Positions 3,003 through 56,670 of a stretch of 59,732 bases of DNA are shown piece after piece. The stretch is from a virus (Duplodnaviria > Caudoviricetes). The DNA lies in IMG/VR virus record IMGVR_UViG_3300032893_000049, positions 1-59,732 of that record; one strand, written 5' to 3'. Both the position numbers and the translations under genes were made by a program. The notes beneath the pieces were generated by a model. It did not search any database. It was not told the origin of the DNA and saw nothing but the letters and a program-made list of their open reading frames with translations. Each line of letters starts with the position of its first letter. Position 1 is the first letter of the stretch.

Positions 3003-3985
3003 TCACTCTTCCCCGACGTCGCGAGGACCGCGGCGCCAGCAACGGCATGTTCGGGCTGGCCGCTGTCGTCGGCGTCATCGCGGCCTTCCTCGGCGTGTTC
3101 ACCTTCGCCAACGCCACCGACACCACCGACGCCGGCCAGGTCGCCGTCGTCCGCAACGGCGGCCTGGCCAACAACGACGTCCGCGCCATCCTGCAGCCCG
3201 CGTCGGGCCTGTCCTGGACCGGCTATTTCTCCAGCTCCCGCAAGTACCCCGCCCAGCAGAGGTACTACACCATCAGCGCAACCGGCGCGGCGGACAAGCA
3301 CACCATCGAGCAGGTGCCCACCGCTGACGGCGTCGAGGTTGGCGTCTCCGGGACGGTCTACTTCCAGCTGAACCTGGACCCGAAGGCCCTGGCCGAGTTC
3401 GACTCCCGCTACGGCACCCGCACCTACCCCGCCCCCGACGGGTCCGGCGACTACGTGTCGATCGACGACCCCGACCGGGGCTGGCAGGCGTTCCTCGACG
3501 CCGTGTTCCAGCCGGTCATCTCGAACGACCTGCGCCAGCAGATCGGCACCGTGCACTGCGCGGAGCTGCAGGCGTCGTGCGCTCTCATCGCGTCAGGGCA
3601 GAACTACCAGGCTGTGGCCGCCGCCGCCGGGCAGGGCAACCTGTCCATCGCCAAGGTGCAGACCGCGATCAACGCCAGCCTCGAGGACGACCTCACTGCA
3701 ACGCTCGGCGGCCGGTTCTTCACCGGCGTCCGGTTCAACCTGTCCGGGATCACCCTGCCCGACCAGGTGCAGACGTCGATCAACAACGCGCAGGCCGCGT
3801 TCGCGGGTGTCGCGCAGGCTGAGGCGAAGGTGCAGCAAGCCAAGGCCGAAGCGGACGCGAACGCCGCCCGCGAGAAGGGATACCTCGCGTGCCCGGCCTG
3901 CGCGCAGATCGACACGTTGAAGGCGATCCCGCCGAACGTGACGACGTTCGCGCCCGGCGCCGGGTTCGCGGTCACCGCGAAGTAG
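2999..3985 (+). CDS. SPFH (band 7/prohibitin) domain membrane protein
   Basis: N-terminal TM helix, GQVAVVRNGG, VPTADGVEV, C-terminal Ala/Gln coiled coil. Confidence 0.8.
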   Translation: MITLPRRREDRGASNGMFGLAAVVGVIAAFLGVFTFANATDTTDAGQVAVVRNGGLANNDVRAILQPASGLSWTGYFSSSRKYPAQQRYYTISATGAADKHTIEQVPTADGVEVGVSGTVYFQLNLDPKALAEFDSRYGTRTYPAPDGSGDYVSIDDPDRGWQAFLDAVFQPVISNDLRQQIGTVHCAELQASCALIASGQNYQAVAAAAGQGNLSIAKVQTAINASLEDDLTATLGGRFFTGVRFNLSGITLPDQVQTSINNAQAAFAGVAQAEAKVQQAKAEADANAAREKGYLACPACAQIDTLKAIPPNVTTFAPGAGFAVTAK

Positions 3986-4063
3986 CCCGTCACGTGCCCG
4001 GGGGTCACCCGGCCCCCGGGCACACCCTCCCCGTCAACTCACCGCGATCGGAGCCCCACAACC

Positions 4064-4666
4064 ATGACCGACCCGAACTACGCCCACGTCATCTTGATCG
4101 TCGACCGTTCCGGGTCGATGGCCGACATCCGCGCCGACGCCGAAGGCGGCGTGAACACGTTCCTGCGCGAGCAGGCGGCGCTGCCGGGCCGGATGACCGT
4201 CACCGTTGTCCAGTTCGACCACGAGGTGGAGACCGTCGTGAGCATGGTGCCCGTCGCCGACGTGCCGCCTTACCAGATGCGGCCTCGCGGCTGGACCGCC
4301 CTGTACGACGCGGTCGGCTACGCCATCACCGACACCGGGGAGCGGCTGGCGGCTCTCCCCGAGGACCAGCGGCCCGGGAAGGTGCTGGTCGCGATCGTCA
4401 CCGACGGCAAGGAGAACAAGTCGCAGGACTGGACCCTGGAGCGGGTGCGGGCCGCGATCGCCCACCAGCGGGACGCCTACGGGTGGGTGTTCTCGTTCCA
4501 GGGCGCCGAGGACTCCGCGTGGCAGGGCCGGGAGATGGGCGTCGGCAACGTCCAGTCGTTCGCGAACACCGGCGTCGGCACGGCGTCCGCGTACTCCAGC
4601 CTCAGCTACGGCACGCAGGTCCTGCGGGGCGGCGGCGGCTTCACGTACGGCCCCGACCCGCAGTGA
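4064..4666 (+). CDS. von Willebrand factor A domain protein
   Basis: MIDAS DRSGS, GWTALYDAVG, IVTDGKEN. Confidence 0.9.
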   Translation: MTDPNYAHVILIVDRSGSMADIRADAEGGVNTFLREQAALPGRMTVTVVQFDHEVETVVSMVPVADVPPYQMRPRGWTALYDAVGYAITDTGERLAALPEDQRPGKVLVAIVTDGKENKSQDWTLERVRAAIAHQRDAYGWVFSFQGAEDSAWQGREMGVGNVQSFANTGVGTASAYSSLSYGTQVLRGGGGFTYGPDPQ

Positions 4667-5109
4667 CCGCTGACCCGCTCGAACCGCCGCCGGAACGCCT
4701 CGAAGCCGCACAGGCAGTCCAGCGGCGGCTCGCCGACATGCTGCCCGCCCTGGCAGCCGCCGGGGCGGGCGACGACAAGGCCTTGGCCGTCGTCGCCCAG
4801 GTCGCCACCAGCGTCGTGTTCCGGCTCGCCTACCAGGCGGCCGCACGGAACACAGCGGTGGCGCCGCTGCCAGCGAACACGATCCGCGGCGAGCTGGTCC
4901 CGGCCGCCCCGGAGGTGCCCGTGCTCGCCGACGTCCAGCAGCTCGGCCCGCACACCTGGGAGGTCGTCGTCCCGGTCGTCAAGCGGGTCCGCGGCAGCGC
5001 ACGCCGCGCCGAGCGGGCGTCCGACAAGTGGATGCGCCGCTACGCCCGCCGCAAGGCGCAGCGGGCGAACCGATACACCCTCACCCTCGAAGGAGACAGC
5101 ACGACGTGA
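4663..5109 (+). CDS. Hypothetical protein
   Basis: GTGA coupling, codon bias. Confidence 0.6.
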   Translation: MTADPLEPPPERLEAAQAVQRRLADMLPALAAAGAGDDKALAVVAQVATSVVFRLAYQAAARNTAVAPLPANTIRGELVPAAPEVPVLADVQQLGPHTWEVVVPVVKRVRGSARRAERASDKWMRRYARRKAQRANRYTLTLEGDSTT

Positions 5110-5399
5110 CCGGCAAGATGCCCGCCCCGACGATCCTGGGGGAGGACCTGCGCGCCGGGGACCTGCTCGGGTCCGACCACTGGCCGATCAAGAAGATCTT
5201 CCCGGTGCTCAACGACCCGGACCTGCGCTCCCACTGCGCCTACCCGCCCGCGCCGCCGCCCGGGAACGGTCTGTGCGGCTGCTACAGCCCCGCCTCCCGG
5301 CTGGAGCAACTGCCCCGCTCCATCGCCGTCGGCCCCCACGGTGAGCGGACCATCCTGCTGCACCACCTGCCGCACATCGCCCACCACGCAACGAACTGA
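5106..5399 (+). CDS. Hypothetical protein
   Basis: RBS AAGGAG, coupled start, followed by terminator. Confidence 0.55.
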   Translation: MTGKMPAPTILGEDLRAGDLLGSDHWPIKKIFPVLNDPDLRSHCAYPPAPPPGNGLCGCYSPASRLEQLPRSIAVGPHGERTILLHHLPHIAHHATN

Positions 5400-5405
5400 G
5401 ACACA

Positions 5406-5456
5406 ACGAACGGGCGACCGACCCCCAAGGGAAGGGAGTCGGTCGCCCGTTCGTTC
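5406..5456. terminator. Bidirectional terminator hairpin between convergent genes
   Basis: aacgaacgggcgaccgac…gtcggtcgcccgttcgtt inverted repeat. Confidence 0.75.
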
Positions 5457-5463
5457 GGACCGG

Positions 5464-5655
5464 TCAGGCGGTGCGGGTGCGGGCAGGAACACCCTCCGCG
5501 CGCCGCCGCCAGTAGTCCCGGGCACTCTCAGTGGGGGCAACGCTGGCCAGGTGCAGGAACTGGGCCCGGGCCGGCTCGGGGACGATCACCCGCCGCTCGA
5601 CGGGCCCTTTCTTGGACGTGGATCTCGCGGCGGATGCCCTGACACGACGCGCCAT
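5464..5655 (-). CDS. Small basic hypothetical protein
   Basis: MARRVRASAARST… ending at the terminator. Confidence 0.45.
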   Translation of the reverse strand: MARRVRASAARSTSKKGPVERRVIVPEPARAQFLHLASVAPTESARDYWRRRAEGVPARTRTA

Positions 5656-5883
5656 CTGCAACCCCTTCCCGGTGGCCGACCCTTGCACGCGAGCGTGACA
5701 ATACCGCCGGGAACCGCCCACCGTCGACAACTTCCGGTAACTTCCAAGGTGGGGCGGCAGTCGTTGACGGGAGGGCCGGGGAGTCTCAGCCCTGCTCTGA
5801 GACCCCCCGACCCGTCCCCATCCCCCGCCGGCACGACGTCAACGCCCAGACCGCGATCGGCCACCGGGCGACGATCGGAGAGA

Positions 5884-6123
5884 TCACCGCGCCGCCTCCG
5901 CATCCTCCGCCGCCACCTGCTGCTGCGCCTCCCAGGCGCGCACATCCTGGTGGAGCGGCACCCACCGGTAGTTCAATGCGCCGCCAGCGGCTGGCTCCGG
6001 CACGTAGTTCCCGCCGTCCACGCCCAAGAACCGCGGCCCATGGCCGTTGATCAACTGGACGGTGACGGTCCTGCCAGCGGCGGGGCCGTCCAACAGCACG
6101 GCAATGGCTGTCGTCTCAGCCAT
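5884..6123 (-). CDS. Hypothetical protein
   Basis: RBS AGGAAGGA upstream; LLDGPAAG motif common in small phage proteins. Confidence 0.6.
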   Translation of the reverse strand: MAETTAIAVLLDGPAAGRTVTVQLINGHGPRFLGVDGGNYVPEPAAGGALNYRWVPLHQDVRAWEAQQQVAAEDAEAAR

Positions 6124-6273
6124 GACGGTGTCCTTCCTGGTGGCGGGTCCAGGCGACGCCCAAGATGCCGATCTGACGGCTACGGCGTCGTATCGACACT
6201 AACCCGAACGTGAACGCCATGTCACGCTTTCGGGCGGCAGCCACGCTGCTGATCCGGCACCTACCGTCCCCTC

Positions 6274-8191: not shown

Positions 8192-9163
8192 TCAGTCCTC
8201 CAGCAGACCGAGGGACCGCAACGCCTGCCGGGTCCGGTCCGGGCTGGCCTGCAGGTACCGGCGGGTCGGTTCCACCTTCGGTCGCGGGTCCATCTGGCCG
8301 GACTGGATCGCCGCGGTGATCAGCGCCGCCAGGTCCTCGATCGTGCGGGCCGGCGGCCGAGTCGACCGGGTCGACCGCCGGCGCGGCTTGCGGGAGGTCG
8401 ATCGGGGCGACGGGACTGCCTCGATCGCCGGCCGCTGTGGCGCCTCGATCGCAGGGTCGATCCTGGACTCGACCGGCACCTCGATCGGGTGGTCGATCGT
8501 CGCCTCGACTGCGGGTGGCGTGGCGGTCGACCGATCGACCACCACGGGGCGCCGATCGTTGTACCGGGCGATCGCCTCCCCGGGGTCGATCGTGCCGTCC
8601 CACGTCGCCTGCCAGTGCGCCCCGAACGTGCGCCACGGGTGCCACACCCAGCGGGCGGCGGAGAACCGCACCGACCGCGGGTCGATCAACCCCTTCGCTC
8701 GCAGCTGCTCCCGGTGCATCGACCGGGACCGGATCGACCACAGCCACGGGGAGATCACCGAGAACAACGCGAACGTCAGCGCCTTCGCGTTCGGGGTCCA
8801 GTCCGGCGCCCAGTGGGTGTAGTTCAGGGCGGCGACCACCCCCGCCATCAGGTAGGACGAGAGGCGCAGCCGGAACGCGGCGTCCCCGGCCATCAGGGCG
8901 ACGTGCGCCTCCCACGCCAGGTACACCGCGATCGACTCCAGGGTGGCGGCGAACCCGACCGCGAGCACGACCGCCCGGGTCAGGTGGTCCAACGCCCACA
9001 TCGTCTGCCCGGCCACCGCAACCGCGTTCACCCCGACCAGGGGGGCAGCCAACGGCAGGGCAGCGACCCACGCCGCCGGTCGAGTCGATCCCCGCACCGT
9101 CGCCCGGGCCGCCTTGACCGCCTCGATCGGCGCCGTCCGCAGCGGCAGCTCCACCACCGTCAT
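8192..9163 (-). CDS. SpdB/DUF2637-like membrane spreading protein
   Basis: Four TM helices (LESIAVYLAWEAH, ALNYTH, FALFSVISPWLW), FSAARWVWHPWRT, Pro-rich linker, C-terminal helical domain. Confidence 0.7.
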   Translation of the reverse strand: MTVVELPLRTAPIEAVKAARATVRGSTRPAAWVAALPLAAPLVGVNAVAVAGQTMWALDHLTRAVVLAVGFAATLESIAVYLAWEAHVALMAGDAAFRLRLSSYLMAGVVAALNYTHWAPDWTPNAKALTFALFSVISPWLWSIRSRSMHREQLRAKGLIDPRSVRFSAARWVWHPWRTFGAHWQATWDGTIDPGEAIARYNDRRPVVVDRSTATPPAVEATIDHPIEVPVESRIDPAIEAPQRPAIEAVPSPRSTSRKPRRRSTRSTRPPARTIEDLAALITAAIQSGQMDPRPKVEPTRRYLQASPDRTRQALRSLGLLED

Positions 9164-9450
9164 CACCGCCTCCTTGCCTTCCCGTGTCGTCCCTTGGTTG
9201 AGGGGCGGGGCAGGCCCAGCAGGACCGCCCCGATCCGTCGTTGCTTGCCGGACCCGCCGCACCACCAGCAGTCCCCGTACGTCCGCTCCCCGATCGGGTT
9301 CGGTTTCTTCGCCGACCCCAGGCACCACCAGCAGGGCCGCCACGGGTAGCGGCGCACGTTGTGCACCCACACCACCCACCCGACCCGCCCGGCGACCAGC
9401 AGCACGAACCCGATCAGCAGGTCACGCAGGATGGTGTGCAGGAGGCCCAC
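9163..9450 (-). CDS. Membrane protein with DnaJ-like Zn finger (actinomycete transfer-region gene)
   Basis: TM helix then CWWCLGS and CWWCGGSG. Confidence 0.7.
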   Translation of the reverse strand: MGLLHTILRDLLIGFVLLVAGRVGWVVWVHNVRRYPWRPCWWCLGSAKKPNPIGERTYGDCWWCGGSGKQRRIGAVLLGLPRPSTKGRHGKARRR

Positions 9451-9457: not shown

Positions 9458-10009
9458 TCACTTCGTCGGGTCGAACTGGCCGGTGTCCTCCCGCAGCTGC
9501 GCGAGCACGTTGACCGCCGCCGACAACGCCTTCGCGGAGTCCTGGCAGCGGCCCGCGTTCTGCCGCAGGTGCCGCCCGACCCGGCGGGCCACCAGCAGCC
9601 TGTCCACCTTGAACGGCCACTTCCCGGTCCGCTTGATCCCCGCCTCGATCTGCTCGGCCCGGTACACCCACCAGTCGCCGAGCCGCAGCAGCTCCGAACG
9701 TGCCTCGTCGGCCCACTGCACGAACTCGCTGGTGGTGCGGAACGGGTCGGACCGCCCCAGCGCCTTGTGCCGGCCCCGGCCGCCACCACCGGCGGGGCCC
9801 CCACCGCCGCCGTCGTTGGTGTTGACGTGCACGTGCACGGCGGGTGCGGGGCCGGCGGCCGGGGCAGAGGGCCCGGGGACGTACTGCGGTTGCGGCTGGG
9901 GCGCCGGGGCCGGCTCCGCGGGGGGCGGGCTGGCCGCAGGCACAGGGGCGGGCGCCGGCGCGGCAGGCGGTGCCGCCGCCGGGGGAGCCTCGGTCGTGGC
10001 CTGGCTCAT
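9458..10009 (-). CDS. TraA-like plasmid transfer protein
   Basis: Pro/Gly-rich N-terminus, helical C-terminus with ARRVGRHL; position next to traB. Confidence 0.5.
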   Translation of the reverse strand: MSQATTEAPPAAAPPAAPAPAPVPAASPPPAEPAPAPQPQPQYVPGPSAPAAGPAPAVHVHVNTNDGGGGGPAGGGGRGRHKALGRSDPFRTTSEFVQWADEARSELLRLGDWWVYRAEQIEAGIKRTGKWPFKVDRLLVARRVGRHLRQNAGRCQDSAKALSAAVNVLAQLREDTGQFDPTK

Positions 10010-10023
10010 CGTCACTCTCCGTA

Positions 10024-10089
10024 CTTGTTCACGGGCCTGTTCAGGGCGTTGTTCACGCTTGTTCACCGGCTTGTTCAGGGCCTTGTTCA
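10024..10089 (-). repeat. clt-like array: six (C/G)TGAACA(A/G) direct repeats
   Basis: tgttca at 10026, 10038, 10050, 10060, 10072, 10084, just 3' of the traB stop. Confidence 0.8.
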
Positions 10090-10122
10090 GCAACCCCTCC
10101 CCCTACGGGGGCAGGGGGGCGT

Positions 10123-12297
10123 TCATGGCGTCGCCGCGTCGTCGTCGAAGAACTCCTCGTCGTCGTCACCCTCCGGCGTCGCCACAGCCCGGGTGCCCGC
10201 GCCGGGCAGCAGCCGGTACACGCCCCGCTCCCCGTCGACCCGCTCCACCTGCCCGTCGTCCATCAGGGTCTGCAGCCGCCGGTACAGGGCGGGGCGCTGC
10301 CCGTCGGTGATCCCCGGAATCGCGAACCAACGGGCCAGCAGGTCGCCCGTCTCGAACGTGACCCGCCCCTCAGCCACGAACCCGGCGATGATCACCCGCA
10401 GGTGCTCCTCCTGCTCCTGCCTGGACGGCACTGGGCCAGGCGTCCCGAGCGTGGCCAGCTCCAGGTCCGGCACGTCGGCCGTGATCGGGACCCGCGGGTT
10501 CAACCCGTCCAGCTCGGGGTCCAGGTCGTGCTCGTAGCCACCCAACGTCTCGTCCTCCTCCTGGTCGTTGTCCCCCGCGGGCGCGGAGGGACGGGTGCGG
10601 GTGGCGGGGGGCTCAAGGACGGCGACACGCCCCGTGGCGGTCGCCGTTGGTGCCGCCGGCGCGGGTGCCGGCGTCGGCGGGACGGGCGGCAGAACCTCGC
10701 CCCGCCCGGACGGGATCAGGTGGGACAGGTCCCGGTTCGCGTACGCCTCACCGAGGGCCTTCACCTGGGCGGGGTGCAGGGTCGCCCGCATCCCCGCGTA
10801 CGCCTCGACCGCGGCCCGGACCGGAGCCCAGTCCTCCCGGCCGTTCACCACCGGCAGGAACGCCCGGCAGTCCAGCGCCGCCTGCGCGAGGCTGATCCCG
10901 GGCCCGTGGATGTAGCAGCGGCCCCGGTCCTCATCCCCGAACAGGTCCGGGCGGATCCCGGTGGCCATCACCGAGTCCGGCATCCCGTACGCGGCGTCAT
11001 CCAGGTCGGTGACCCCGAACACGGTGTGCCCGGCGAACTGGGACCGCACGGTGGTGTTGATCCGGTCGTAGGTGGCCCGTTGCAACGAGAAGTAGACGAA
11101 GATCCCCGCCGACGCGGCCCGCTCCAGCACGGCGACCAGCTGGTCCATCTCGACCAGCCAGCCGGCCTCCTCGACCTTGACGACCAGCAGCGGGATCCGG
11201 TGCTTGGTCCAGCACTCCGGCTTCCACTCCGTGTAGCCAAGGTCGGCCAGCAGGTCGACCTGTGAGTCGATCAGCCGGAGCAAGGCGCGGATCATCGCCT
11301 TGACCTCCCGCTCGGTGCCGGCGAACCAGTCGATGCCCGACCGGACGGGCCCGAACGTCTGCCACTTCTTCACCGGGTCCGCGAGCCACACCACGACGTC
11401 GGTTCGGGTGAGCATGTCCGCGGTCTCCAGCACCGACTTGACGCCCTTGCCCATCCGGGACCGGCCGGTGGTCAGGTTGTGGCCCCGCCCGTGGATCTCC
11501 AGCACCGGTGACCCGTCGGAGCGGATCGCCGAGCAGGTGGGCAGGCTGATCGACCCGCCCGGGTGGGACGGGCCAGGCCACGGGATCGGCCCCTGCGCGA
11601 GGATGTCGACCTGCGTGAACGTCAGCCGCGACTGGTCCGCCGACCCCTCCGCGACAGCCCGCAGAGATCCGCGCCGCAACCCGGCCATCGACTCGAGCCC
11701 CCGCAGCGCCCCCTGCAGCTCCTCCGTGGACTGGCCGCCGGCGTGACGCACCCGCGACACCTTCGTCGTGTCGGTCGCCTCCACCAGGTGCCCGCGGGTC
11801 CCCGACGCCAGACCGAGAGCCTCCAGCGGCGACTGCTGCCCGTGGGAGTCGTTGCCGAGCCCCCGCACGACCGGCATCCGCGGCATCTGCACCCACACCG
11901 CCAACGCGACCGCACCGAACACTTGGGTCAGGAACCACGGCATCGGCGCGCCGACGACCACCGTGATCCCGAACGCCAGGAACGGCACCGCCACCACGCA
12001 CACCGCCCGGACCCGGTCCAGCCAGTGCCGGGCCTTCGCCTCATGCAGCGTCGTGATCACCCCGAGGGCCGTCGCGCACACCACCGACAGGATGGGCAGC
12101 CACGGCGCCCAGGACACGCGACCCCACACGAGGTAGTGGGCGATCGGGCCGCCCGCGAGGACCACGAAAGCGACGACCAGCGGCACGATCGCGGCCAAGT
12201 TGCGGTGCGACATGCGTCCCGCCAGGAACCCAGCCGCGATCGCCTCCCCGGGGGGGACGTCACCCCACCCGCGGGGGGTCTTGCCGCGCCGCCTCAT
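10123..12297 (-). CDS. traB: TraB-like FtsK/SpoIIIE conjugative DNA translocase
   Basis: N-terminal TM helices, GRSRMGKG Walker A variant, VVWLADPVK, VVKVEEA Walker B, RAASAGI…SLQRA, RGRCY, C-terminal winged helix. Confidence 0.85.
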   Translation of the reverse strand: MRRRGKTPRGWGDVPPGEAIAAGFLAGRMSHRNLAAIVPLVVAFVVLAGGPIAHYLVWGRVSWAPWLPILSVVCATALGVITTLHEAKARHWLDRVRAVCVVAVPFLAFGITVVVGAPMPWFLTQVFGAVALAVWVQMPRMPVVRGLGNDSHGQQSPLEALGLASGTRGHLVEATDTTKVSRVRHAGGQSTEELQGALRGLESMAGLRRGSLRAVAEGSADQSRLTFTQVDILAQGPIPWPGPSHPGGSISLPTCSAIRSDGSPVLEIHGRGHNLTTGRSRMGKGVKSVLETADMLTRTDVVVWLADPVKKWQTFGPVRSGIDWFAGTEREVKAMIRALLRLIDSQVDLLADLGYTEWKPECWTKHRIPLLVVKVEEAGWLVEMDQLVAVLERAASAGIFVYFSLQRATYDRINTTVRSQFAGHTVFGVTDLDDAAYGMPDSVMATGIRPDLFGDEDRGRCYIHGPGISLAQAALDCRAFLPVVNGREDWAPVRAAVEAYAGMRATLHPAQVKALGEAYANRDLSHLIPSGRGEVLPPVPPTPAPAPAAPTATATGRVAVLEPPATRTRPSAPAGDNDQEEDETLGGYEHDLDPELDGLNPRVPITADVPDLELATLGTPGPVPSRQEQEEHLRVIIAGFVAEGRVTFETGDLLARWFAIPGITDGQRPALYRRLQTLMDDGQVERVDGERGVYRLLPGAGTRAVATPEGDDDEEFFDDDAATP

Positions 12298-12503
12298 CGT
12301 GTCGCCCTCCTCTGGTTCCCCCACCGGCACCCGCACCCGACCGAGACCACCTCGCCGTAGTGGGCGACGTGCTGGCACTGCCCGTCCTCGTCGTGCCGGT
12401 GCTTGCCCGGGCACGTGCACTGCCCCTCGTTCTCGTCGGGTTCGTCGTCCACGTCGAGCTCGTCGAGGTCAGGGGTCGGCGCCCACCGGTTCCACAACCC
12501 CAC
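12294..12503 (-). CDS. Small acidic Cys/His protein
   Basis: CTC…H…H…C…CGC; stop overlaps traB start. Confidence 0.55.
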   Translation of the reverse strand: MGLWNRWAPTPDLDELDVDDEPDENEGQCTCPGKHRHDEDGQCQHVAHYGEVVSVGCGCRWGNQRRATR

Positions 12504-12595
12504 CGGTCACCTCCCCGGCCCGGGTCCCCACCCCGCCGCCCGGCGTCGCGGGCGGGGGATTACCGCTTCGCCACGGCCGACGGGGTGGGGACGTC

Positions 12596-12859
12596 TCACG
12601 CCGGCTGTCCGGCCGGCTCCACCTGCACCCGGACCGGCTCGTCGCGGCCCGCTTCCCACCCGTGCTGGGTCCCGTCGTCGGCGACCAACACGGCCGAGGG
12701 ACCCACGAGCTCCGGGGTCCGCATCCGCAGCACCGTCGCCGGATGCTCCACACCGACGTCGTGCGCGCCCGGGTACCGGCAGGCCCTGGTCGCCCGGCAC
12801 GGGATCAGCAAGGTCATCCCGGGGGTCACTTCGTCACCGAAGATCACGCGGCTGTCCAT
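12596..12859 (-). CDS. Hypothetical protein
   Basis: RBS GGAGG, coupled to whiB stop. Confidence 0.55.
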   Translation of the reverse strand: MDSRVIFGDEVTPGMTLLIPCRATRACRYPGAHDVGVEHPATVLRMRTPELVGPSAVLVADDGTQHGWEAGRDEPVRVQVEPAGQPA

Positions 12860-13137
12860 CACGCGGCCCTCCGCTTGAGCCGGCGCCGTTCCCGCTCGGA
12901 CAGGCCACCCCAGACCCCGAACCGTTCGTCGTGGGCCAGGGCGTACTCCAGGCACTCCACGCGCACCTCGCAGGCCAGGCACACCAGCTTCGCCGCCCGG
13001 GAAGACCCTCCCTTCTCGGGGAAGAACGCCTCCGGGTCGGTCTGGGCGCACAACGCCCGGTCCTGCCACTCCAGCTCGGCGGGCAGCTCGTCCCCGGCTG
13101 CACCGTGGACGACGATCGTCAGCTCGTGCACGGTCAC
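12859..13137 (-). CDS. whiB: WhiB-family regulator (WhiB/WhiB2-like)
   Basis: WQDRALCAQTDPEAFFPEKGGS…CLAC…C…GVWGGLSERER. Confidence 0.95.
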   Translation of the reverse strand: MTVHELTIVVHGAAGDELPAELEWQDRALCAQTDPEAFFPEKGGSSRAAKLVCLACEVRVECLEYALAHDERFGVWGGLSERERRRLKRRAA

Positions 13138-13412
13138 CGCCGCCGTCCCGACCTGGTGCCGGCACGCGGCTGGGACCGCTTCGCCTGCCGGTTCGCCCGG
13201 GTCACCTGCCGCGCCGCCGCCCTGGACCTCCTCTGGACGTGCGCCTGCAGCTTCCGCAGGTGGTAGTCGGCGGTCGGGTCCCCGGTGCTGATCCGGCCCT
13301 TGGCCTGCCCGCGCCCGGACCGCTTGCTGGAGCCGCCGAACAGGTACGCGCACACCAGCAGGACGCCGACGATCACGACACCCCACAGGGCCGGGTTCAT
13401 CTGCCCGCTCAC
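13134..13412 (-). CDS. Membrane-anchored basic protein
   Basis: Single TM helix plus Arg-rich tail; coupled genes. Confidence 0.6.
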   Translation of the reverse strand: MSGQMNPALWGVVIVGVLLVCAYLFGGSSKRSGRGQAKGRISTGDPTADYHLRKLQAHVQRRSRAAARQVTRANRQAKRSQPRAGTRSGRRR

Positions 13413-13630
13413 GGCGTCGCCCCGGTGCGGGCGCGCTGGGCCTCGCGGATGGCGCTGACGATGCACGCCGCGGTGATCACGGCAGCGGTGGTCGCGAGGA
13501 CCTCGTCGTCACGGAGGAGCAGGGCGACGCTGGCGATGGCCCAACCGATCGGCAGACCGAAGTGGAACTTGCGGCGGTGACGCCGCCACATGGACGGCCG
13601 GGTGGGCTGGGAGGGGACGGTGGCGGTCAT
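13409..13630 (-). CDS. Small two-TM membrane protein
   Basis: Two hydrophobic segments; GGAG RBS. Confidence 0.6.
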   Translation of the reverse strand: MTATVPSQPTRPSMWRRHRRKFHFGLPIGWAIASVALLLRDDEVLATTAAVITAACIVSAIREAQRARTGATP

Positions 13631-13656
13631 GGCGGGATCAACTCCAGGGGTCGTGG

Positions 13657-13863
13657 TCAGGACAGGTGCTCACGCACCGAGTCGGCGTAGATCCGCACGA
13701 GCCGGCCCACCCGGACACCGCGCAACGCCTGGGCGTGGACCAGCCGGTACACGGAGTTCCGGTCGATGCGCAGGACGGCTGCCACCTCGGCGGGGGTCAG
13801 CAGGTCCGGCCAGGACGGGGATGCTCCTGGTGCTCCTGTCGACTCTGAGGCTCGCGAGGTCAT
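13657..13863 (-). CDS. Excisionase-like (HTH_17) DNA-binding protein
   Basis: LLTPAEVAAVLRIDRNSVYRLV…GVRVGRLVRI. Confidence 0.85.
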   Translation of the reverse strand: MTSRASESTGAPGASPSWPDLLTPAEVAAVLRIDRNSVYRLVHAQALRGVRVGRLVRIYADSVREHLS

Positions 13864-13867
13864 GCCA

Positions 13868-13968
13868 ACCATGCTGAACCATGTAGGCCAGGTGCGCAAG
13901 GTCTCGGCGCGGCGCGTGACGGGATCCGTGCCGCAGCGGCGCCCCCGTGCGGCACCATGTGCACCATG
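13868..13968. promoter_or_regulatory. Paired ACCATG repeats in the divergent xis/gntR interval (candidate GntR operators)
   Basis: accatg at 13868, 13878, 13954, 13963. Confidence 0.45.
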
Positions 13969-13997
13969 TCCCGCACGGTGCCGCAGGTCAGCCGCTG

Positions 13998-14312
13998 ATG
14001 GCTCTCCCGTCCTGGCAGGAGATCGCCGAGACGCTGCGCGAGCGGGTGCGGGCCGGCGACTACCCCGTGGGGTCCCTGATCCCGTCCACGACGGGCCTGG
14101 CGGCGGAGTTCGGGGTGACGCGGGGGCCAGCTCGGGCCGCAGTGGAAGCACTCAAGCGGGAGGGCGTTCTGGAGGGGGAGCCGGGCCGGGGGGTCCGGGT
14201 GGCGGCGGTGCCGTCGGCGCGGTTGCGGCCGGTGCGGGATGTGCTGGCCGAGCACGAGGCGCAACTGCGGGAGATCCGGGAGCGGCTCGACCGGCTAGAG
14301 AACCAGGGTTGA
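13998..14312 (+). CDS. GntR-family regulator (KorSA/TraR-like)
   Basis: WQEIAETLRERVRAGDYPVGSLIPS…LAAEFGV…ALKREG…GRG; divergent from the tra operon. Confidence 0.9.
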   Translation: MALPSWQEIAETLRERVRAGDYPVGSLIPSTTGLAAEFGVTRGPARAAVEALKREGVLEGEPGRGVRVAAVPSARLRPVRDVLAEHEAQLREIRERLDRLENQG

Positions 14313-14347
14313 CAACCTAACCCGAGACAGGGTTTAATGGTCACATG
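14309..14347 (+). promoter_or_regulatory. Shared promoter motif copy 1 (leaderless)
   Basis: TTGACA-N18-TTTAAT-GGTCAC-ATG. Confidence 0.75.
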
Positions 14348-14638
14348 ACGACGCCGGTGATGCCCGCACCCGCAGCCCACGCACCCATCTCGATGCTCAA
14401 CCGCACGGGCAGCGGCATCCGCACCATCATCATCTGCTCCTGCGGATGGACCCCCAGCAAGGCACCCGAGCGGGGCTCCACCATGCACAACGCCCACGAC
14501 GCCCACCGGCGCGCCCACGGCCTGCGCAAGGACACCTGCCCCGCCGACGTCTACGGCGAGGGCCCCGCCAAGGGCCTCACCTGGGACCAGTGGTACGCCG
14601 CCAACCCCGGCCTTGACCCGTTCGGCGTCCGGGACTGA
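14345..14638 (+). CDS. Hypothetical protein (CxCGW…H…H)
   Basis: ATG directly at promoter motif. Confidence 0.65.
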   Translation: MTTPVMPAPAAHAPISMLNRTGSGIRTIIICSCGWTPSKAPERGSTMHNAHDAHRRAHGLRKDTCPADVYGEGPAKGLTWDQWYAANPGLDPFGVRD

Positions 14639-14712
14639 ACCAACCACAACCGTCGCATGGCCGCGGCATGATGGCCGTCAGGTGATCAACCGACTACAAG
14701 GAGCCCCCCGCC

Positions 14713-14994
14713 ATGACCACCACGACCCAGATCACAGATCTCACCGATCTGCTCGATCTCAGCGACACCTTCGGCATCTACGCCGACGACTACGACACCG
14801 ACGCGGTCCGCGACGACTTCATCGCCGCTCTCCAGGCGGCCGCCCAGCGGATTGCGCCAAGCGTCACTGTGCATCGCAACGGGATGGTCTTCGCCGCCGT
14901 CGAAGACGCCGCCTCCGCCCGCGAGATCGCGTGGACGACCCTCGCCGAGGGCATCGACATCACCCCGATGCTCGCCGCACACGAGAAGGGCTGA
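14713..14994 (+). CDS. Acidic hypothetical protein
   Basis: AAGGAG RBS; Asp-rich. Confidence 0.65.
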   Translation: MTTTTQITDLTDLLDLSDTFGIYADDYDTDAVRDDFIAALQAAAQRIAPSVTVHRNGMVFAAVEDAASAREIAWTTLAEGIDITPMLAAHEKG

Positions 14995-15000
14995 CCGACC

Positions 15001-15297
15001 GTGAGCATGACACCACTCGGCCCCAGAGGACCCCTCCGGATGATCGCCGTCGCCGAACTGTTCACCGAGCGTGTGAGTGTGAGCGTCGGCCCTGAGCGCA
15101 TCGAGGGCATGGAGGACGTCTACCGACCCGACGAGGCCATCGCCGCAACCGCCACAACCATCAACGGTGGACTCGCGCAGGCCAAGGAATGGCTTGAGGG
15201 GCAGGGCTGGAGCGTTGGGTCGTGGCACAAGATGGCATCAACCGACTACGACAAGTTTGCCCACCTCAAGCGCTGGGCGGTCGTCAACAAGCGTTGA
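15001..15297 (+). CDS. Hypothetical protein
   Basis: ORF in operon, codon bias. Confidence 0.55.
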   Translation: MSMTPLGPRGPLRMIAVAELFTERVSVSVGPERIEGMEDVYRPDEAIAATATTINGGLAQAKEWLEGQGWSVGSWHKMASTDYDKFAHLKRWAVVNKR

Positions 15298-15906: not shown

Positions 15907-16560
15907 ATGTGGCTCGTGGCCGTCGTCCCCCTGCTGCGCGTCGAACACGGGTACCCCGTCGAGGGCCTCGTCGAGTGGCCCGGCAACCCCCGCAAGCACG
16001 ACGAGAACGTGCTGGACGAGTCGGTCGCCGACCACGGCCAGTTCCGCAACGTGCTGGCCCGGGAACTGCCCGACGGCCGCCTCCAGCTACTGGCCGGGCA
16101 CGGCACCCGCGAGGCCCTGATCCGCGCCGGCATCACCCACATTGACGTCGAGGTCCGCGCCGTCCCCGACGACGACCGGGCCCGCCGCATCGTCCTGATC
16201 GAGAACCGGTCCGGGGATCGCGCCCGCTACGACCACTCCAAGCTGCTCGACCTGCTCGACGAGGCCCGCGCCACCCCACACGGCCTGGACGGCACCGGCT
16301 GGGACGCCCAGGGGTACGACGACCTGCTGGCCGCCCACCAGGCCCCGGACCTGGACGACCTGGCCGGGCAGGTCGGCGACCCCACCGACGAGGACCGGAT
16401 GGTCGTCATCCGGGTCCTGGTCGACCCGTCCACGCGCGACCAGTTCAACCGGCTCATGTCCCTGGTCGAGGGGGCGGCCAGCGACGCCGAGAAGTTCTCC
16501 GGGGTGCTGGCCTGGGCCGCCGTGGGTGCCCGCGCAGACGGGCTGGACACGATGCCGTGA
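15907..16560 (+). CDS. ParB/Srx N-terminal domain protein
   Basis: PGNPRKH, SVADHGQ, LLAGHGT, ENR motifs; typical first gene of phage DNA-modification clusters. Confidence 0.85.
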   Translation: MWLVAVVPLLRVEHGYPVEGLVEWPGNPRKHDENVLDESVADHGQFRNVLARELPDGRLQLLAGHGTREALIRAGITHIDVEVRAVPDDDRARRIVLIENRSGDRARYDHSKLLDLLDEARATPHGLDGTGWDAQGYDDLLAAHQAPDLDDLAGQVGDPTDEDRMVVIRVLVDPSTRDQFNRLMSLVEGAASDAEKFSGVLAWAAVGARADGLDTMP

Positions 16561-17504
16561 CCGTCGAGCTCCGCTACCCCGTCAACGCCCTCACCTCGTT
16601 CCGCTACTTCAAGGACGTCGACCTGACCCCGTTGACAGCCGGCGGGCTGCGGTTGATCGCCGACTCCGGAGCGTTCTCCGCCGCCTCCCAGGGCACCCCG
16701 ATCGACCTGGACGAGTTCGCCGACTGGGCGACCCGGGTCCGGCACCTGGTGTCGTGGGTGGCATCCCTGGACGTCATCGGCGACGCCGACCGCACCTGGA
16801 CCAACTACCAGCGGTTGCGGTCCCTGCACGGCCTGGACGTCATCCCGACCGTCCACTACGGCGCCGACCCGTCCCTGCTGGACCGGTACGCCGGCGACGG
16901 CGTCGACTTCGTCGGCCTGGGCGGCATGGTCGGCCGCAAGTCCGAACCGCAGCGGCTGCTGCGCTGGACCCTGCACATGTTCCGGTACGCCAGGGACCAC
17001 CACCCGGGGATGCGGTTCCACGGCTGGGGGGTCACCCACCCCCAGCTGCTGGCGGCACTGCCCTGGTTCTCCGTCGACTCCTCCGGCGCCGGCTCCGCCT
17101 ACCGGTACGGGCGGGCGAGCCTGTTCAACCCCGACACCGCCCAACTGGTCACCGCCTCCATGAACGGCCGGGACATGCACCGCCACTCCGACCTGCTGCG
17201 CCGCTGGTACGGGGTCACCCCCGCGGAGGTGTCGACGTCCAGCAGCACCAACCGGTCCCTGCACGTGCGGATGGCGGCCCGGTCCCTGCAACTGCGGGAG
17301 GACTGGCTGCGGGCCCGCCACCGGGTCACCCCACCCACCTACGGCCTGACCGACGCACCCAGCAGCGGCCCGCACGTGCACATCTCCGACACCACCAGCA
17401 TCAACTACGTCCCGATCATGCGGCCCGCCGACGACGGCCCGCACATCCACTACGTGGACGCCGCCCCCGGGCACCTGGCTCGACTCACCGAGAGGACCCC
17501 ATGA
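16557..17504 (+). CDS. dpdA: DpdA-like (TGT-fold) 7-deazaguanine DNA transglycosylase
   Basis: IADSGAFS, LDVIGD, IPTVH, VGLGG, FHGWGVT, FSVDSS; context with que genes. Confidence 0.8.
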   Translation: MTVELRYPVNALTSFRYFKDVDLTPLTAGGLRLIADSGAFSAASQGTPIDLDEFADWATRVRHLVSWVASLDVIGDADRTWTNYQRLRSLHGLDVIPTVHYGADPSLLDRYAGDGVDFVGLGGMVGRKSEPQRLLRWTLHMFRYARDHHPGMRFHGWGVTHPQLLAALPWFSVDSSGAGSAYRYGRASLFNPDTAQLVTASMNGRDMHRHSDLLRRWYGVTPAEVSTSSSTNRSLHVRMAARSLQLREDWLRARHRVTPPTYGLTDAPSSGPHVHISDTTSINYVPIMRPADDGPHIHYVDAAPGHLARLTERTP

Positions 17505-18202
17505 CAAGCACCCTCGTCCTGCTGTCTGGTGGGCTGGACTCCACCACCCTCGCCGCCCACCTGCTCGACGCCGGCGACCACCTGGAGACCATCTCCATCC
17601 ACTACGGGCAGCGCCACGTCCGCGAGCTGCAGGCCGCCGCCGCCGTCGCCGCCCACCTCGGGCTCCGCCACGACGTCGTCGACCTGTCCGTGCTGCGCCA
17701 GCACCTCACCGGATCTGCCCTCACCGACGACGTGCCCGTCCCCCACGGCCACTACGCCGAGGACACCATGCGCGCCACCGTCGTCCCCAACCGCAACGCG
17801 ATCATGCTGTCGGTCGCGGTCGGCATCGCCGTGGCCCGCCACCTGAACCGGGTCGCCACCGCCGTGCACGCCGGTGACCACTTCGTGTACCCCGACTGCC
17901 GGCCCGCCTTCATCGACGCCATCGACGACGCGGCCCGCCTGGGCACCCAGGGGTTCGGCGACGTCATGGTGACCGCCCCGTTCGTCAACTGGACGAAAGC
18001 GGACATCGCCCGCCGCGCCCACCAGTTGGGCGCCCCCGCGCACCTGTCCTGGTCCTGCTACGAGGGCAACGACCAACACTGCGGCCGGTGCGGGACCTGT
18101 GTGGAGCGGGCCTCCGCGTTCTCACAAGCCGGGGTGCCCGACCCCACGGTCTACGCCGACCGTCAGTTCTGGACCGAGATGATCGAGCGGCACGGAGTCT
18201 GA
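17501..18202 (+). CDS. queC: 7-cyano-7-deazaguanine synthase
   Basis: LLSGGLDS, YGQRH, VPNRN, YPDCR, SWSCY…HCGRCGTC. Confidence 0.97.
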   Translation: MTSTLVLLSGGLDSTTLAAHLLDAGDHLETISIHYGQRHVRELQAAAAVAAHLGLRHDVVDLSVLRQHLTGSALTDDVPVPHGHYAEDTMRATVVPNRNAIMLSVAVGIAVARHLNRVATAVHAGDHFVYPDCRPAFIDAIDDAARLGTQGFGDVMVTAPFVNWTKADIARRAHQLGAPAHLSWSCYEGNDQHCGRCGTCVERASAFSQAGVPDPTVYADRQFWTEMIERHGV

Positions 18203-18263
18203 CGGTGGGAGTCCACGAAACCTGCTACGTCAAGGTGCACCGTCGTCTCCGTCAGGTCGCCCC

Positions 18264-18684
18264 ATGAACGGACTCGTCGTCACCCCCTGCGGCCGCCGCA
18301 AGGCCCCCGCGCCCACACAGGCAGCGGACCTGTACCGGGGCAGTTACTTCCGGGTCTGCCTGCGGTATGCCCGGCACCTGCAGCCGGACAACCGGATCCG
18401 GATCCTGTCCGCCCTGCACGGCCTTGTCTACCTTGACCAAGTGCTGGCCCCGTACAACGTGATGTTCGGGGGGCCCGGCACCATCCGGGTCGCCCAGATC
18501 CGGGAGCAGGCCGCACAGCAGGGCCTCCTGGACGCCAACCCCGTCATCATCCTTGGCGGCGTTGAGTACGCCTCCCGGGCCCTGCCGGTGTGGCCGCACG
18601 CCACCACCCCCCCTGATCACGGTCGAGGGCCGCATGGGCGACCAGCAGAACGCGATGCGTTGCTGGATGGGTGAGGTGTCGTGA
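18264..18684 (+). CDS. DUF6884-like protein, apparently frameshifted at a C7 run (18607-18613)
   Basis: VVTPCGRRK…AADLYRGSYF…ILSALHGL; as written stops at 18674, with one fewer C it reads PLITVEGRMGDQ… to a stop at 18684 coupled to next GTG. Confidence 0.7.
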
Positions 18685-18848
18685 CCGGGATCGTCGCCGC
18701 CCTCCTGCTGGGCGCCACTGTCGGGGCCGTGTTCGCGGTCGCCCGCTTGCCGGTCCCGGCCCCGAGCACCTGGGCGGGAGTCGCCGGGATCGTTGGCCTG
18801 CTCACGGGATGGCTGGCCGTCAACGCCCTGCTGGGAAGGAACCACTGA
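18681..18848 (+). CDS. XapX/DUF1427-like small membrane protein
   Basis: LLLGATVGAVFAVARLPVPAPSTWAGVAGIVG; coupled at both ends; not listed in the ORF track. Confidence 0.75.
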   Translation: MTGIVAALLLGATVGAVFAVARLPVPAPSTWAGVAGIVGLLTGWLAVNALLGRNH

Positions 18849-19213
18849 TGTACGAGATCACCAAGGACTTCGCGTTCTCCGCGGCGCACGTCCTGCACGG
18901 GCTGCGCCCCAACCACCCGTGCGGCCGGACCCACGGCCACAACTACACCGTGCGGGTCGCCTTGTCCGCCCACGACCTCAACACGGTCGGGTTCGTCGTC
19001 GACTACGGCGACCTCAAGCCGTTCGGGCTGTGGCTGGACACCAACCTCGACCACCAGCTCCTCAACAAGGTCCTGCCGATGCAGCCGTCGGCGGAGAACA
19101 TGGCCCAGTACCTGCACGCCGTCCTGCACGACGTCGTGCCCGTGCCCGACGGGGTGACCGTCGCGGTGGCCGTGTCCGAGACCCCGAAGACGTGGGCCTG
19201 GTACCGGCCGTGA
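18848..19213 (+). CDS. queD: 6-carboxytetrahydropterin synthase
   Basis: FSAAH, CGRTHGHNY, LDH, SAEN, SETP. Confidence 0.95.
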   Translation: MYEITKDFAFSAAHVLHGLRPNHPCGRTHGHNYTVRVALSAHDLNTVGFVVDYGDLKPFGLWLDTNLDHQLLNKVLPMQPSAENMAQYLHAVLHDVVPVPDGVTVAVAVSETPKTWAWYRP

Positions 19214-24916: not shown

Positions 24917-25864
24917 GTGACCACCACCAGCCGCAAGACCACCAAGCGGACCATCAGCCCCGCCGAGCAGGCCCGCCGCGACGCCGACCGCCAAGCCAAG
25001 GTCGAAGCCGCCCACACCCTGCTCACCGAGGGCATCGCCAACCTCACCAACTCCACCCAGTGGACCGCGATGCTCACCACCGCCGCCCGCTTCCACCACT
25101 ACAGCTGGCGGAACTGCCTGATGATCCTCTCCCAGCGTGAGGACGCCACCCGCGTCGCGGGATACAAGACGTGGCAGGCCCTCGGCCGGCAGGTCCGCAA
25201 GGGCGAACCCGGCATCAAGATCTGGGCGCACATCACCGTGTGGCGGGACCCCAAGGACTCCGACCCCGCCGACACCATCGACCCCAAGACCGGCAAGGTC
25301 CGCCGCGACGGGTACCGCATCGAGCACGTGTGGGACATCGCCCAGACCGACGGTGACCCCCTCCCCGACACCGAACAGCCCAGGCCGACCCTGCTGACCG
25401 GCGACGCCCCCGACGGCTTGTGGGACGCCCTCGCCGCCCAGGTCACCGCCCTCGGTTACACCCTCCGCCGCGCGGCCCACCCGTCCAGCCCGGACGCGAA
25501 CGGCACCACCGACCCCCGTAACCGGACCGTCTACGTCCGCCCCGACCTGAACCCCGCGCAGGCCGTGAAGACCCTCGCCCACGAGATCGCCCACATCCGG
25601 TGCGGGCACACCGACCCCGGCCAGCACACCCCCCGCACCCGCGGCGAGGTCGAGGCCGAGTCCGTCGCCTTCGTGGTCGCCTCCTACTTCGGGTTGGACA
25701 CCAGCGACTACACCCTCGCCTACGTCGCCGGCTGGGCGGAGGACGGCAAGGAGACCGAGGCCGTCACCGAGACCGCCGACACGGTCATCCGGGTGGCCCG
25801 GCAGATCATCGACGACGCCGAGGAGCACATGACCCCCGACCTGCCGGTGGCGGTCGGCCAGTAA
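24917..25864 (+). CDS. ArdC-like ssDNA-binding domain plus HExxH metallopeptidase-like domain
   Basis: FHHYSWRN, VAGYKTWQALGRQVRKGE, VWDIAQTDG, KTLAHEIAH, EVEAESVA, YVAGW. Confidence 0.85.
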   Translation: MTTTSRKTTKRTISPAEQARRDADRQAKVEAAHTLLTEGIANLTNSTQWTAMLTTAARFHHYSWRNCLMILSQREDATRVAGYKTWQALGRQVRKGEPGIKIWAHITVWRDPKDSDPADTIDPKTGKVRRDGYRIEHVWDIAQTDGDPLPDTEQPRPTLLTGDAPDGLWDALAAQVTALGYTLRRAAHPSSPDANGTTDPRNRTVYVRPDLNPAQAVKTLAHEIAHIRCGHTDPGQHTPRTRGEVEAESVAFVVASYFGLDTSDYTLAYVAGWAEDGKETEAVTETADTVIRVARQIIDDAEEHMTPDLPVAVGQ

Positions 25865-46468: not shown

Positions 46469-46798
46469 GTGGCCGGGATGCCGATGCGGCAGAGCGCCCT
46501 CTCCTTGCAGTTCGTGGGCGCGTACGTGACGGCGCTGGTCAACGGCGCCACGTACAACCCGACCTCGGACGCGGTGGCGTTCGCGTTCACCGCGTCCGGG
46601 GTCGACCCGCAGGTGTCCGACTGGGTGGCCGGCGCGTGGGAGACCGTCGCCGGCCCACCCACCCAGTACAAGGCGAAGTGCCTGGTCGGTCCCGGCGGCA
46701 CGATCACCCTCGGCAAGGGCCTCTACGACGTGTGGGTGAAGGTCACCGACAGCCCGGAGGTGCCGGTCCTGTCCGTGGACACCCTGCAGATCTTCTGA
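46469..46798 (+). CDS. Ig-like (BppU-like) virion protein
   Basis: PTSDAVAFAF…W-x-x-G-x-W…LVGP…YDVWVKVTDSPEVPV. Confidence 0.65.
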   Translation: MAGMPMRQSALSLQFVGAYVTALVNGATYNPTSDAVAFAFTASGVDPQVSDWVAGAWETVAGPPTQYKAKCLVGPGGTITLGKGLYDVWVKVTDSPEVPVLSVDTLQIF

Positions 46799-46823
46799 CC
46801 CTTCACCGCAAGGAGAACCCCTG

Positions 46824-47057
46824 ATGTCGTACGGATTCAACGTCCGCAAGGTCGGCGACGAGCTGGTGCTGGAGAACCACAAGGCCGCAGCGGCTCACAT
46901 CCCCGACGGCGCGGTGTTCACCGTCAGCGGCCACGAGCCGAAGCCGGACACGTCGAAGGTCGCCAGCCTCAACGTGAGCCTCGCCGTGCACGTCGAGGGC
47001 CAGCCGTACCCGCAGCACGTCGCGCAGGCCGCCGCCACGTACAACACCGCTCGCTGA
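46824..47057 (+). CDS. Hypothetical protein
   Basis: AAGGAG RBS. Confidence 0.6.
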   Translation: MSYGFNVRKVGDELVLENHKAAAAHIPDGAVFTVSGHEPKPDTSKVASLNVSLAVHVEGQPYPQHVAQAAATYNTAR

Positions 47058-47097
47058 GCGGTTCTCCCTTCTCACCACCCTTTCCCCGGGGGCGGCC

Positions 47098-48657: not shown

Positions 48658-48678
48658 CCCTTGAGGGGAGGCCCAGCC

Positions 48679-49113
48679 GTGCAGGTGCTCACCAACGCCG
48701 GCCAGTACGTCGAGGTCAGCCAGTTCAACCCGTTCCCGGTCGCGCCGGCGTCGACGTTCACGACGTTCCTGACCTACCCGTCGACCGCGCAGGCCGCCGC
48801 GAACACGGGGACGTCGTTCTCGACCAGCGCGGTGACGTCGCTGGCCGTGGACGTCAACGTGACCGTGTTCACCGGCGGCGCCAGCCCGTCGGTGACGTTC
48901 TTCGTGGACCGGTTCGGCGCCGACGGTGTCTGGTATCGAACGTGGACGTCCACGGCGATCTCCACGGCGTCCAGCACGTCGGTGGTGATCGGGCCGTACC
49001 CGACGGCGACCGGTGTGGTCACCGCGGCGTTGACGTCGCTGGCCCGGTTCGGGTGGTCGTTCGCGGGCGCCCCCACGTCGGTCACGTTCTCCGCGTCCGT
49101 GGTCGGCCGCTGA
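48679..49113 (+). CDS. Putative virion structural protein (Thr/Ser-rich beta-sandwich)
   Basis: GGAGG RBS; VNVT-x-x-TGG-x-x-PS-x-TF…DG-x-W. Confidence 0.65.
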   Translation: MQVLTNAGQYVEVSQFNPFPVAPASTFTTFLTYPSTAQAAANTGTSFSTSAVTSLAVDVNVTVFTGGASPSVTFFVDRFGADGVWYRTWTSTAISTASSTSVVIGPYPTATGVVTAALTSLARFGWSFAGAPTSVTFSASVVGR

Positions 49114-49114
49114 C

Positions 49115-49621: not shown

Positions 49622-49643
49622 CCGCGAGAGGGGTGCCCACACC

Positions 49644-56665: not shown

Positions 56666-56670
56666 GCCGT

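Follow-up and report, generated by a model that had tools for sequence, protein, structure and literature searches.

A stretch of viral DNA of 59,732 bp with 72% G+C (the whole of which is called the window here) carries six direct repeats of 8 bp immediately behind the translocase gene traB, and judging from the sequence this array is probably a clt/TRS array read by the adjacent TraB. The preliminary description of this DNA had taken the repeats for the cognate TRS of a clt locus, and we hold that assignment with moderate confidence, as it is supported by conservation of the array in a related metagenome locus (L001), by its clt-like position and by the architecture of TraB. The type of site is already known (clt/TRS after traB), and the repeat word is new; specialists would expect such arrays behind traB, and no new principle is involved. 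The features concerned all lie on the minus strand and are listed below in its 5' to 3' direction.

10123..12297, minus strand: traB, encoding a 724-aa membrane DNA translocase (P0002), assigned from an NF041214 match below the cut-off, an AlphaFold2 (AF2) model and Foldseek
10198..10440, minus strand: region of the C-terminal domain of TraB with the order H-b-H-H-b-b (AF2 model, residues 626-696, pLDDT 90-97)
10258-10305, minus strand: putative recognition helix H3, the third helix of the C-terminal domain (residues 665-680, DGQRPALYRRLQTLMD)
10120..10125, minus strand: degenerate copy TGAACG over the traB stop
10094..10117, minus strand: GC-rich hairpin just 3' of traB (-20.1 kcal/mol, z -1.86)
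10024..10090, minus strand: six direct repeats with the consensus (C/G)TGAACAAG, candidate clt site and TraB recognition sites, conserved as CGAACAA x6 in L001
10007..10020, minus strand: Shine-Dalgarno sequence GGAG (10017-10020) and ATG (10007-10009) of the downstream gene, conserved in L001
9458..10009, minus strand: TraA-like gene of 183 aa, the first after the array (weak NF041213 match, likeness to TraA of pSN22)
8192..9379, minus strand: ORF of a membrane protein of up to 395 aa after the traA-like gene (phrog_10376, E=1.5e-12)

Repeats downstream of traB

The motif scan of the minus strand located TGAACA at 10026-10031, 10038-10043, 10050-10055, 10060-10065, 10072-10077 and 10084-10089, with start-to-start distances, read 5' to 3' on that strand, of 12, 12, 10, 12 and 12 bp, in exact agreement with the six (C/G)TGAACA(A/G) repeats that the preliminary description had placed in the gap between traB and the TraA-like gene. 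The pattern [CG]TGAACA[AG] fits all the copies, which read in order CTGAACAAGGCC, CTGAACAAGCCG, GTGAACAAGC, GTGAACAACGCC, CTGAACAGGCCC and GTGAACAAGTAC, and four of the six contain TGAACAAG; Tandem Repeats Finder reported a period of 12 at 10024-10089. The locus displays three features of clt-type sites, namely clustered direct repeats of ~7-9 bp in a non-coding stretch (here six 8-bp repeats in 67 bp), a location at or just past the point where the translocase gene ends (the array, at +34..+97 relative to the traB stop, begins 34 bp beyond it), and an accompanying inverted repeat, that is the hairpin at 10094-10117, the core of which is kept in L001. The space between this hairpin and the Shine-Dalgarno sequence of the next gene is wholly filled by the array, which ends 4 nt ahead of the latter. 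A hairpin by the traB stop had been noted previously, and it was recovered at approximately the same place as a GC-rich structure; of the partial repeat copy reported at the traB stop, the existence was verified, as TGAACG is indeed present there, but this copy is not conserved in L001.

Such clustering is far beyond the chance level. Throughout the 59,732 bp of the window, TGAACA alone among non-simple hexamers attains six copies within 80 bp, and six copies appeared in none of 200 dinucleotide-preserving shuffles, the maximum being five in 10 of them, four in 169 and three in 21. The Poisson probability of at least six copies in 64 bp, calculated from the 13 other minus-strand copies of TGAACA in the window, is ~1e-14. 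The G+C content of the array is 57% vs 72% for the window. A cluster of GATCGA with equal copy number (six in 110 bp, ~8390-8500, minus strand) was rejected as a cis site, being a coding repeat which encodes a repetitive P-A-I-E-A / I-D linker within the 395-aa membrane protein ORF. In the entire window TGAACA occurs 27 times against 9.25 expected; the 21 copies outside the array amount to about twice the expectation, and nine of these 21 are GTGAACAC, an excess which we attribute to codon context. Only five of the 21 fit the 8-mer, and with only these five other matches in 59.7 kb a dispersed, chromosome-type 'clc' role of TGAACA on the contig was rejected.

Iterons and type-II centromeres are typically built of phased direct repeats about one helical turn long, and a ParB-N-like protein is encoded in the window at 15907-16560. 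A function of the array in replication or partition is nevertheless very improbable, as neither a replication initiator nor a partition ATPase is found next to it and the array is tied to traB and traA both in the window and in L001. Since the ParB-like gene abuts a queuine-tRNA-ribosyltransferase-like gene, it probably belongs to a DNA-modification cluster.

The TraB translocase and the element encoding it

The traB gene is an intact ORF, which starts with ATG at 12295-12297, preceded by GGAGG, and terminates with TGA at 10123-10125; an in-frame GTG upstream, at 12420, represents an alternative start that would extend the protein to 765 aa. The product matches the NCBIfam model NF041214 (plasmid_TraB) with E=9.9e-76 over profile positions 23-635 of 639, scoring 255.6 bits vs an equivalog cut-off of 800, as well as phrog_24831, a PHROG of unknown function (E=7e-54), while the Pfam search gave nothing at E<=0.01, FtsK_SpoIIIE included. 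Its relatives detected by HMMER among 1.84 billion representatives numbered 504 at E<=0.001, the closest one being 42% identical.

The AlphaFold2 model of TraB, built from a 36-sequence alignment (mean pLDDT 82), comprises an N-terminus of long helices (residues 31-140) including TM helices, a motor domain with pLDDT >90, a disordered linker (531-613) and a C-terminal domain; the model thus unites an N-terminal membrane anchor and a predicted C-terminal winged helix in one protein. In the Foldseek search the motor was closest to the motor domains of FtsK (2iut/2ius/6t8b, E ~1e-14), and it possesses the Walker A lysine, the Walker B motif and the Q-R pair of FtsK-like motors, deviating from them in GKG for GK[ST]. 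Residues G278, G283, K284, E376, E377 and Q406 are invariant across 36 sequences. The Walker A motif of the window TraB (residues 278-286) reads G-x4-G-K-G-V, likewise in TraB of L001 and in the TraB relative P0006, whereas the other nine sequences of a TraB alignment have GKT or GKS. The position of TraB far below the equivalog cut-off, its lack of a Pfam FtsK_SpoIIIE match and the GKG variant of Walker A count against the clt reading; GKG is not a recent defect, however, because it has been kept across 40% identity.

The C-terminal domain consists of a helix (626-642), a short strand (647-649), two further helices (650-658 and 665-680) and two strands (684-686 and 693-696), and we read this modelled topology as that of a winged helix. 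Within its third helix, the octapeptide QRPALYRR is invariant in TraB of the window, TraB of L001 and P0006.

The element itself is phage-like in gene content: it encodes the large terminase (47098-48657), an 843-aa portal protein that carries a NUDIX hydrolase domain at its C-terminus as a fusion (49578-52109) and a head protease/major-head-like protein (53101-54855), as well as a DnaB-type helicase, a WhiB-like protein and a PTPS/QueD-like protein. The head and packaging block as a whole extends over 46469-59125 and comprises the terminase, portal-NUDIX, minor-head-like and protease/major-head-like proteins, with no tail genes in this block before the contig end. The ends of the window do not overlap, and this TraB has also been recorded on a contig of 78,409 bp, therefore the window is probably an incomplete genome. 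The genes at 15907-19213 code, in this order, for the ParB-N-like protein, the queuine-tRNA-ribosyltransferase-like protein (phrog_7068, E=8.5e-89), a DUF6884 protein and a 6-pyruvoyl-tetrahydropterin-synthase (QueD-like), and look like a 7-deazaguanine DNA-modification cluster. In one protein, encoded at 24917-25864, an N-terminal ArdC domain is joined to an IrrE/M78 peptidase domain. Anti-restriction proteins of this type are usually found on conjugative elements, and its presence would suit an element for which naked DNA is a further way into cells. Just upstream of traB lies the gene of a WhiB-domain protein (12859-13386, minus strand), separated from traB by a region with a 19-nt-arm hairpin (12524-12592).

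A related locus and the genes behind the array

The metagenome scan yielded a sole locus, L001 (7,743 bp), the TraB of which (3843-5966) is 40% identical to that of the window and 74% identical to P0006. Its TraA-like protein occupies the same position as the window counterpart and is 37% identical to it, as determined by blastp of the called ORFs. After the traB stop the order in L001 is an inverted repeat copy, a hairpin with the core CCCCCGTAGGGGGAG, six CGAACAA, the block GAACAAGTAACGGAGAGTGAC and ATG. The hairpin block CCCCCGTAGGGGGAG is identical between the window and L001. The array of L001 (6028-6092, +62..+125 from the traB stop) is spaced 12, 11, 12, 11 and 12 bp, and the span from the first to the last repeat is 58 bp in both loci; calculated from the background of L001 itself, the probability of at least six GAACA in 64 bp is ~2e-12. 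One base of the repeat is T in all six window copies and C in all six L001 copies, and the core GAACA is retained in six of six copies in both. Such a uniform replacement, seen in a comparison of two sequences, is concerted in the way one would expect of a protein site present in multiple copies. In global comparison, the DNA of the two loci is 59-62% identical across the flanking coding regions and ~70% identical in the block from the hairpin to the Shine-Dalgarno sequence; synteny analysis by tblastx gave noise alone in this G+C-rich DNA. An additional observation in L001 is a seventh full repeat in inverted orientation (5976-5983), located 10 bp after the traB stop, with the hairpin between it and the six direct copies.

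The post-traB hairpin may act like a terminator or supply the inverted repeat of the cis site. A simple scan called no T-run terminator at the locus in the window or in L001. Comparison of the two folds revealed one C-G pair replaced by U-A and one U-A pair lost, which, with two sequences, is anecdotal.

The ORF list placed the start of the gene downstream of the hairpin at TTG 10093, with the array translated, and the preliminary description had conceded that its proposal would fail if the repeats were translated as the beginning of the downstream gene and lacked conservation at the DNA level. This translation was rejected. The array is kept in L001, where an in-frame TGA stands one codon ahead of the conserved ATG; this stop, together with the spacings of 10 and 11 bp, which cannot keep a peptide repeat, argues that the array is untranslated. 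The Shine-Dalgarno and start block, GAACAAGTA(A)CGGAGAGTGAC..ATGAGC, is common to the window and L001, and on this sequence evidence the TraA-like gene starts at 10009. Its protein matches NF041213 (plasmid_TraA) below the cut-off (E=4.2e-4) and TraA of pSN22 with 28% identity over 108 aa (E=6e-4). For the membrane protein ORF behind it, which has no Pfam or NCBIfam match, a function as a spread (Spd-like) protein is possible.

The location of the array on the sense strand directly ahead of this Shine-Dalgarno sequence could also suit an RNA leader, in which the A/C-rich, weakly structured repeats would enhance translation of the traA-like gene or offer a standby site for it, and the 136-nt stretch, folding no better than its shuffles (z -1.0), is compatible with such an open leader. 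A leader, though, needs neither six phased copies, nor a conserved span of 58 bp, nor an identical substitution in every one of the six, and we regard this function as highly unlikely.

The main alternative is that the array represents an operator or promoter region, i.e., the sites of a Kor/TraR-like repressor or another regulator of the traA-like/spread operon, which begins 17 nt downstream, and that TraB reads the repeats not at all or only additionally. The array abuts the Shine-Dalgarno sequence of the traA-like gene exactly where an operator or promoter would sit, and should the hairpin terminate transcription, the promoter must lie inside the array. A candidate regulator is available as well: a GntR-type HTH protein of 121 aa, without an effector domain, is encoded further upstream of traB (13947-14312, plus strand). 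The operators of GntR-type proteins are usually palindromic, and six direct repeats of the same sense are unlike them. Moreover, TGAACA is absent from 10090-15059, a region that covers the upstream side of traB and the vicinity of the GntR gene, which argues against a motif of a TraR-type regulon. No sigma-70-like promoter was found in the window or in L001 by a scan whose consensus was that of E. coli only, and the position of the array is equivalent to that of the proven clt sites of pJV1 and pWTY27. Considering that, according to PMC3583192, clt of pIJ101 lies close to korB, a dual role would be possible, but on balance the operator explanation appears improbable.

Alternatively, the array may be a cis site of the transfer module that is read by a protein other than TraB, such as the TraA-like or the spread protein, for example in passing DNA on to the machinery for spreading. 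In the window and L001 the array is indeed conserved along with the traA-like gene, and, as stated in PMC4447253, spread proteins interact with TraB and SpdB2 is reported to bind dsDNA. However, the TraA-like protein showed no DNA-binding fold or family, and TraB is the sole neighbour with a confidently modelled winged helix, making this variant unlikely, even somewhat more so than the operator.

Further relatives of the locus were sought in several collections. Close relatives were found neither in plasmids (megablast), nor in phages (tblastn), nor in viral contigs (with TraB, P0006 and a 3-sequence alignment as queries), nor in genome contigs (alignment search). In the plasmid collection no DNA similarity was detected and the matches to TraB did not exceed 34% identity, and the C-terminal 110 aa of TraB gave only noise (E>=2) against plasmids in tblastn. 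Scans with a GAACAAG-array pattern matched at least 119 stretches in viral contigs and at least 123 in genome contigs; among the matches listed, which together with L001 make 243 loci, TraB was encoded only by L001 (tblastn), and the other GAACAAG arrays of high G+C content (e.g., L128, L130, L218 and L243) were rejected as unrelated to TraB. The more specific hairpin-to-Shine-Dalgarno pattern had no match in viral contigs.

Arrays and putative recognition helices among TraB loci and known clt systems

The comparison was extended to 13 TraB loci, i.e., the window, L001 and 11 PLSDB records picked from 51 with a TraB match, in which hexamer clusters were sought within -40..+320 of the traB stop with pJV1, pSN22 and pWTY27 as positive controls. 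At least four copies of a hexamer were present in this interval at 11 of the 13 loci, as compared with 17.5% of 1060 background 360-bp windows from the same loci (2.4% reached at least six copies); the 13 loci form ~7 related groups and are not independent, and nominal binomial values overstate their independence. A clear array after traB was missing in two of the 13, L249 (two copies) and L250 (three copies). Among the controls, the scan recovered eight CCGCACA at +6..+116 in pJV1, seven CGCACA at +8..+108 in pSN22 and four TGACAC at -12..+30 in pWTY27.

The last 110 residues of the 13 TraB proteins were aligned for the comparison of H3, with pFRL2 left out, as its annotated C-terminus does not align. 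Four loci with CGCACA (pJV1, pSN22, L248 and L254) have R-[DE]-R-S-W-V-S at the start of helix 3, while S-R-P-W-[VI]-S accompanies TGACA-type words in three (pWTY27, pCQ4 and an Amycolatopsis plasmid), and Q-R-P-A-L-Y-R-R accompanies GAACA in two, the window and L001. In L250 and L251 the helix contains K-R-P-W-M-Q and the word is CTGACA; L249 has the same helix and no array in the scanned range. As to covariation of the repeat with the recognition helix, proposed earlier as a check, H3 groups with the word in nine of the 13 loci, but the T/C difference that separates the window from L001 is unmatched in the helix core, QRPALYRR being unchanged there although the repeat differs. Any co-variation must consequently sit in the flanks of this core (DG/LS before it, LQT/ITR after it) or elsewhere. 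The grouping of helix and word is what a model with TraB reading the array would predict from these sequences, but it is confounded by common descent.

Returning to the interpretation of the array as a clt/TRS site, we propose the following mechanism. It would be the C-terminal winged helix of the neighbouring TraB, and no other protein, that reads the six 8-bp repeats (consensus TGAACAAG) on the traB coding strand; a TraB ring would assemble on the array as a double-stranded site and pump the unprocessed element into a neighbouring hyphal compartment or a mating partner. The conserved hairpin core would be the inverted-repeat component, as in known clt sites, possibly doubling as the traB terminator. 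The array would be needed in cis for transfer, and the transfer module would be active.

If TraB does read the array, the winged helix of the QRPALYRR type together with the TGAACAAG or CGAACAAG word would constitute a new specificity class among the few TraB/clt pairs. The arrays of the window and L001 would then provide a natural one-base variant present in every copy, making specificity swaps directly testable. A more speculative and rather doubtful extension is that a tailed phage or phage-plasmid of a mycelial actinomycete, equipped with a complete TraB/clt module of its own, spreads its genome from hypha to hypha free of a capsid, and that the six sites, with their 58-bp span in lineages 60% diverged in protein, provide one site per subunit of the TraB hexamer, a template for ring loading rather than a loose cluster. 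The literature search, which concerned clt on phages, returned no paper in the library searched that describes such a site.

Among the characterized systems, TraB of pSVH1 reads repeated 8-bp motifs via helix alpha3 of its C-terminal wHTH (Vogelmann et al. 2011, as cited in PMC4447253, PMC3583192 and PMC10191066). The window TraB has, according to its model, the same domain order as this hexameric FtsK-like membrane translocase with a C-terminal wHTH; the motif is different, and the sequence relationship is distant.

The clt of pJV1 comprises nine 9-bp repeats with inverted repeats (PMC3583192), and the repeats are reported to be essential for clt function (PMC3583192 and PMC4447253). As in the clt of pJV1 and pSN22 (CCGCACA[C/G][C/G]), the direct repeats of the window are on the coding strand of traB, begin within a short distance of its stop and end ahead of the next Shine-Dalgarno sequence, with an inverted repeat alongside. 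It differs from them in the word TGAACAAG, in having six copies vs 7-9, and in a spacing of 10-12 bp, wider and more regular than in arrays of the pJV1 type; besides, the hairpin precedes the array in the window, whereas the inverted repeat splits the array in pJV1 and pSN22. The window TraB is only ~25% identical to TraB of these two plasmids. Gene order differs as well, being traB-array-traA in the window and traA-traB-array in pJV1 and pSN22: traA precedes traB in pSN22, pJV1, pWTY27 and pCQ4, and the classical location of traA, upstream of traB behind a TraR-controlled promoter, is reversed in the window. This reversal and the wider spacing speak against the clt reading, as do L249 and L250 with their want of a clear array.

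In pWTY27, clt contains four TGACACC, extends over 16 bp of the tra gene and adjacent DNA, and was footprinted and bound in EMSA by Tra (PMC3583192). The window shares with it a cluster of short direct repeats at the 3' end of the translocase gene, along with inverted repeats, but contains six copies starting 34 bp past the stop, in contrast to the four overlapping the stop in pWTY27. The record of pWTY27 (L244) also has, shortly after clt, a gene annotated as 'phage major capsid protein' (5079-6185).

The C-terminal winged helices of FtsK (gamma, reading KOPS) and SpoIIIE (reading SRS) recognize short oriented words, which are dispersed and skewed chromosome-wide and steer the moving motor. 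The window TraB resembles these proteins in its FtsK-type motor and in the modelled C-terminal winged helix, and differs from the KOPS and SRS systems in that its words are clustered at one locus.

Finally, the Streptomyces plasmid-phage pZL12 carries genes for phage particles and a Streptomyces-type tra gene (Zhong et al. 2010, as cited in PMC4487206 and PMC3583192). The window element, likewise of an actinomycete, joins phage genes with a Streptomyces-type tra gene, and with the module situated on a contig that encodes terminase, portal and head proteins, it may, similarly to pZL12 as portrayed there, move both as a virion and by conjugation-like pumping.
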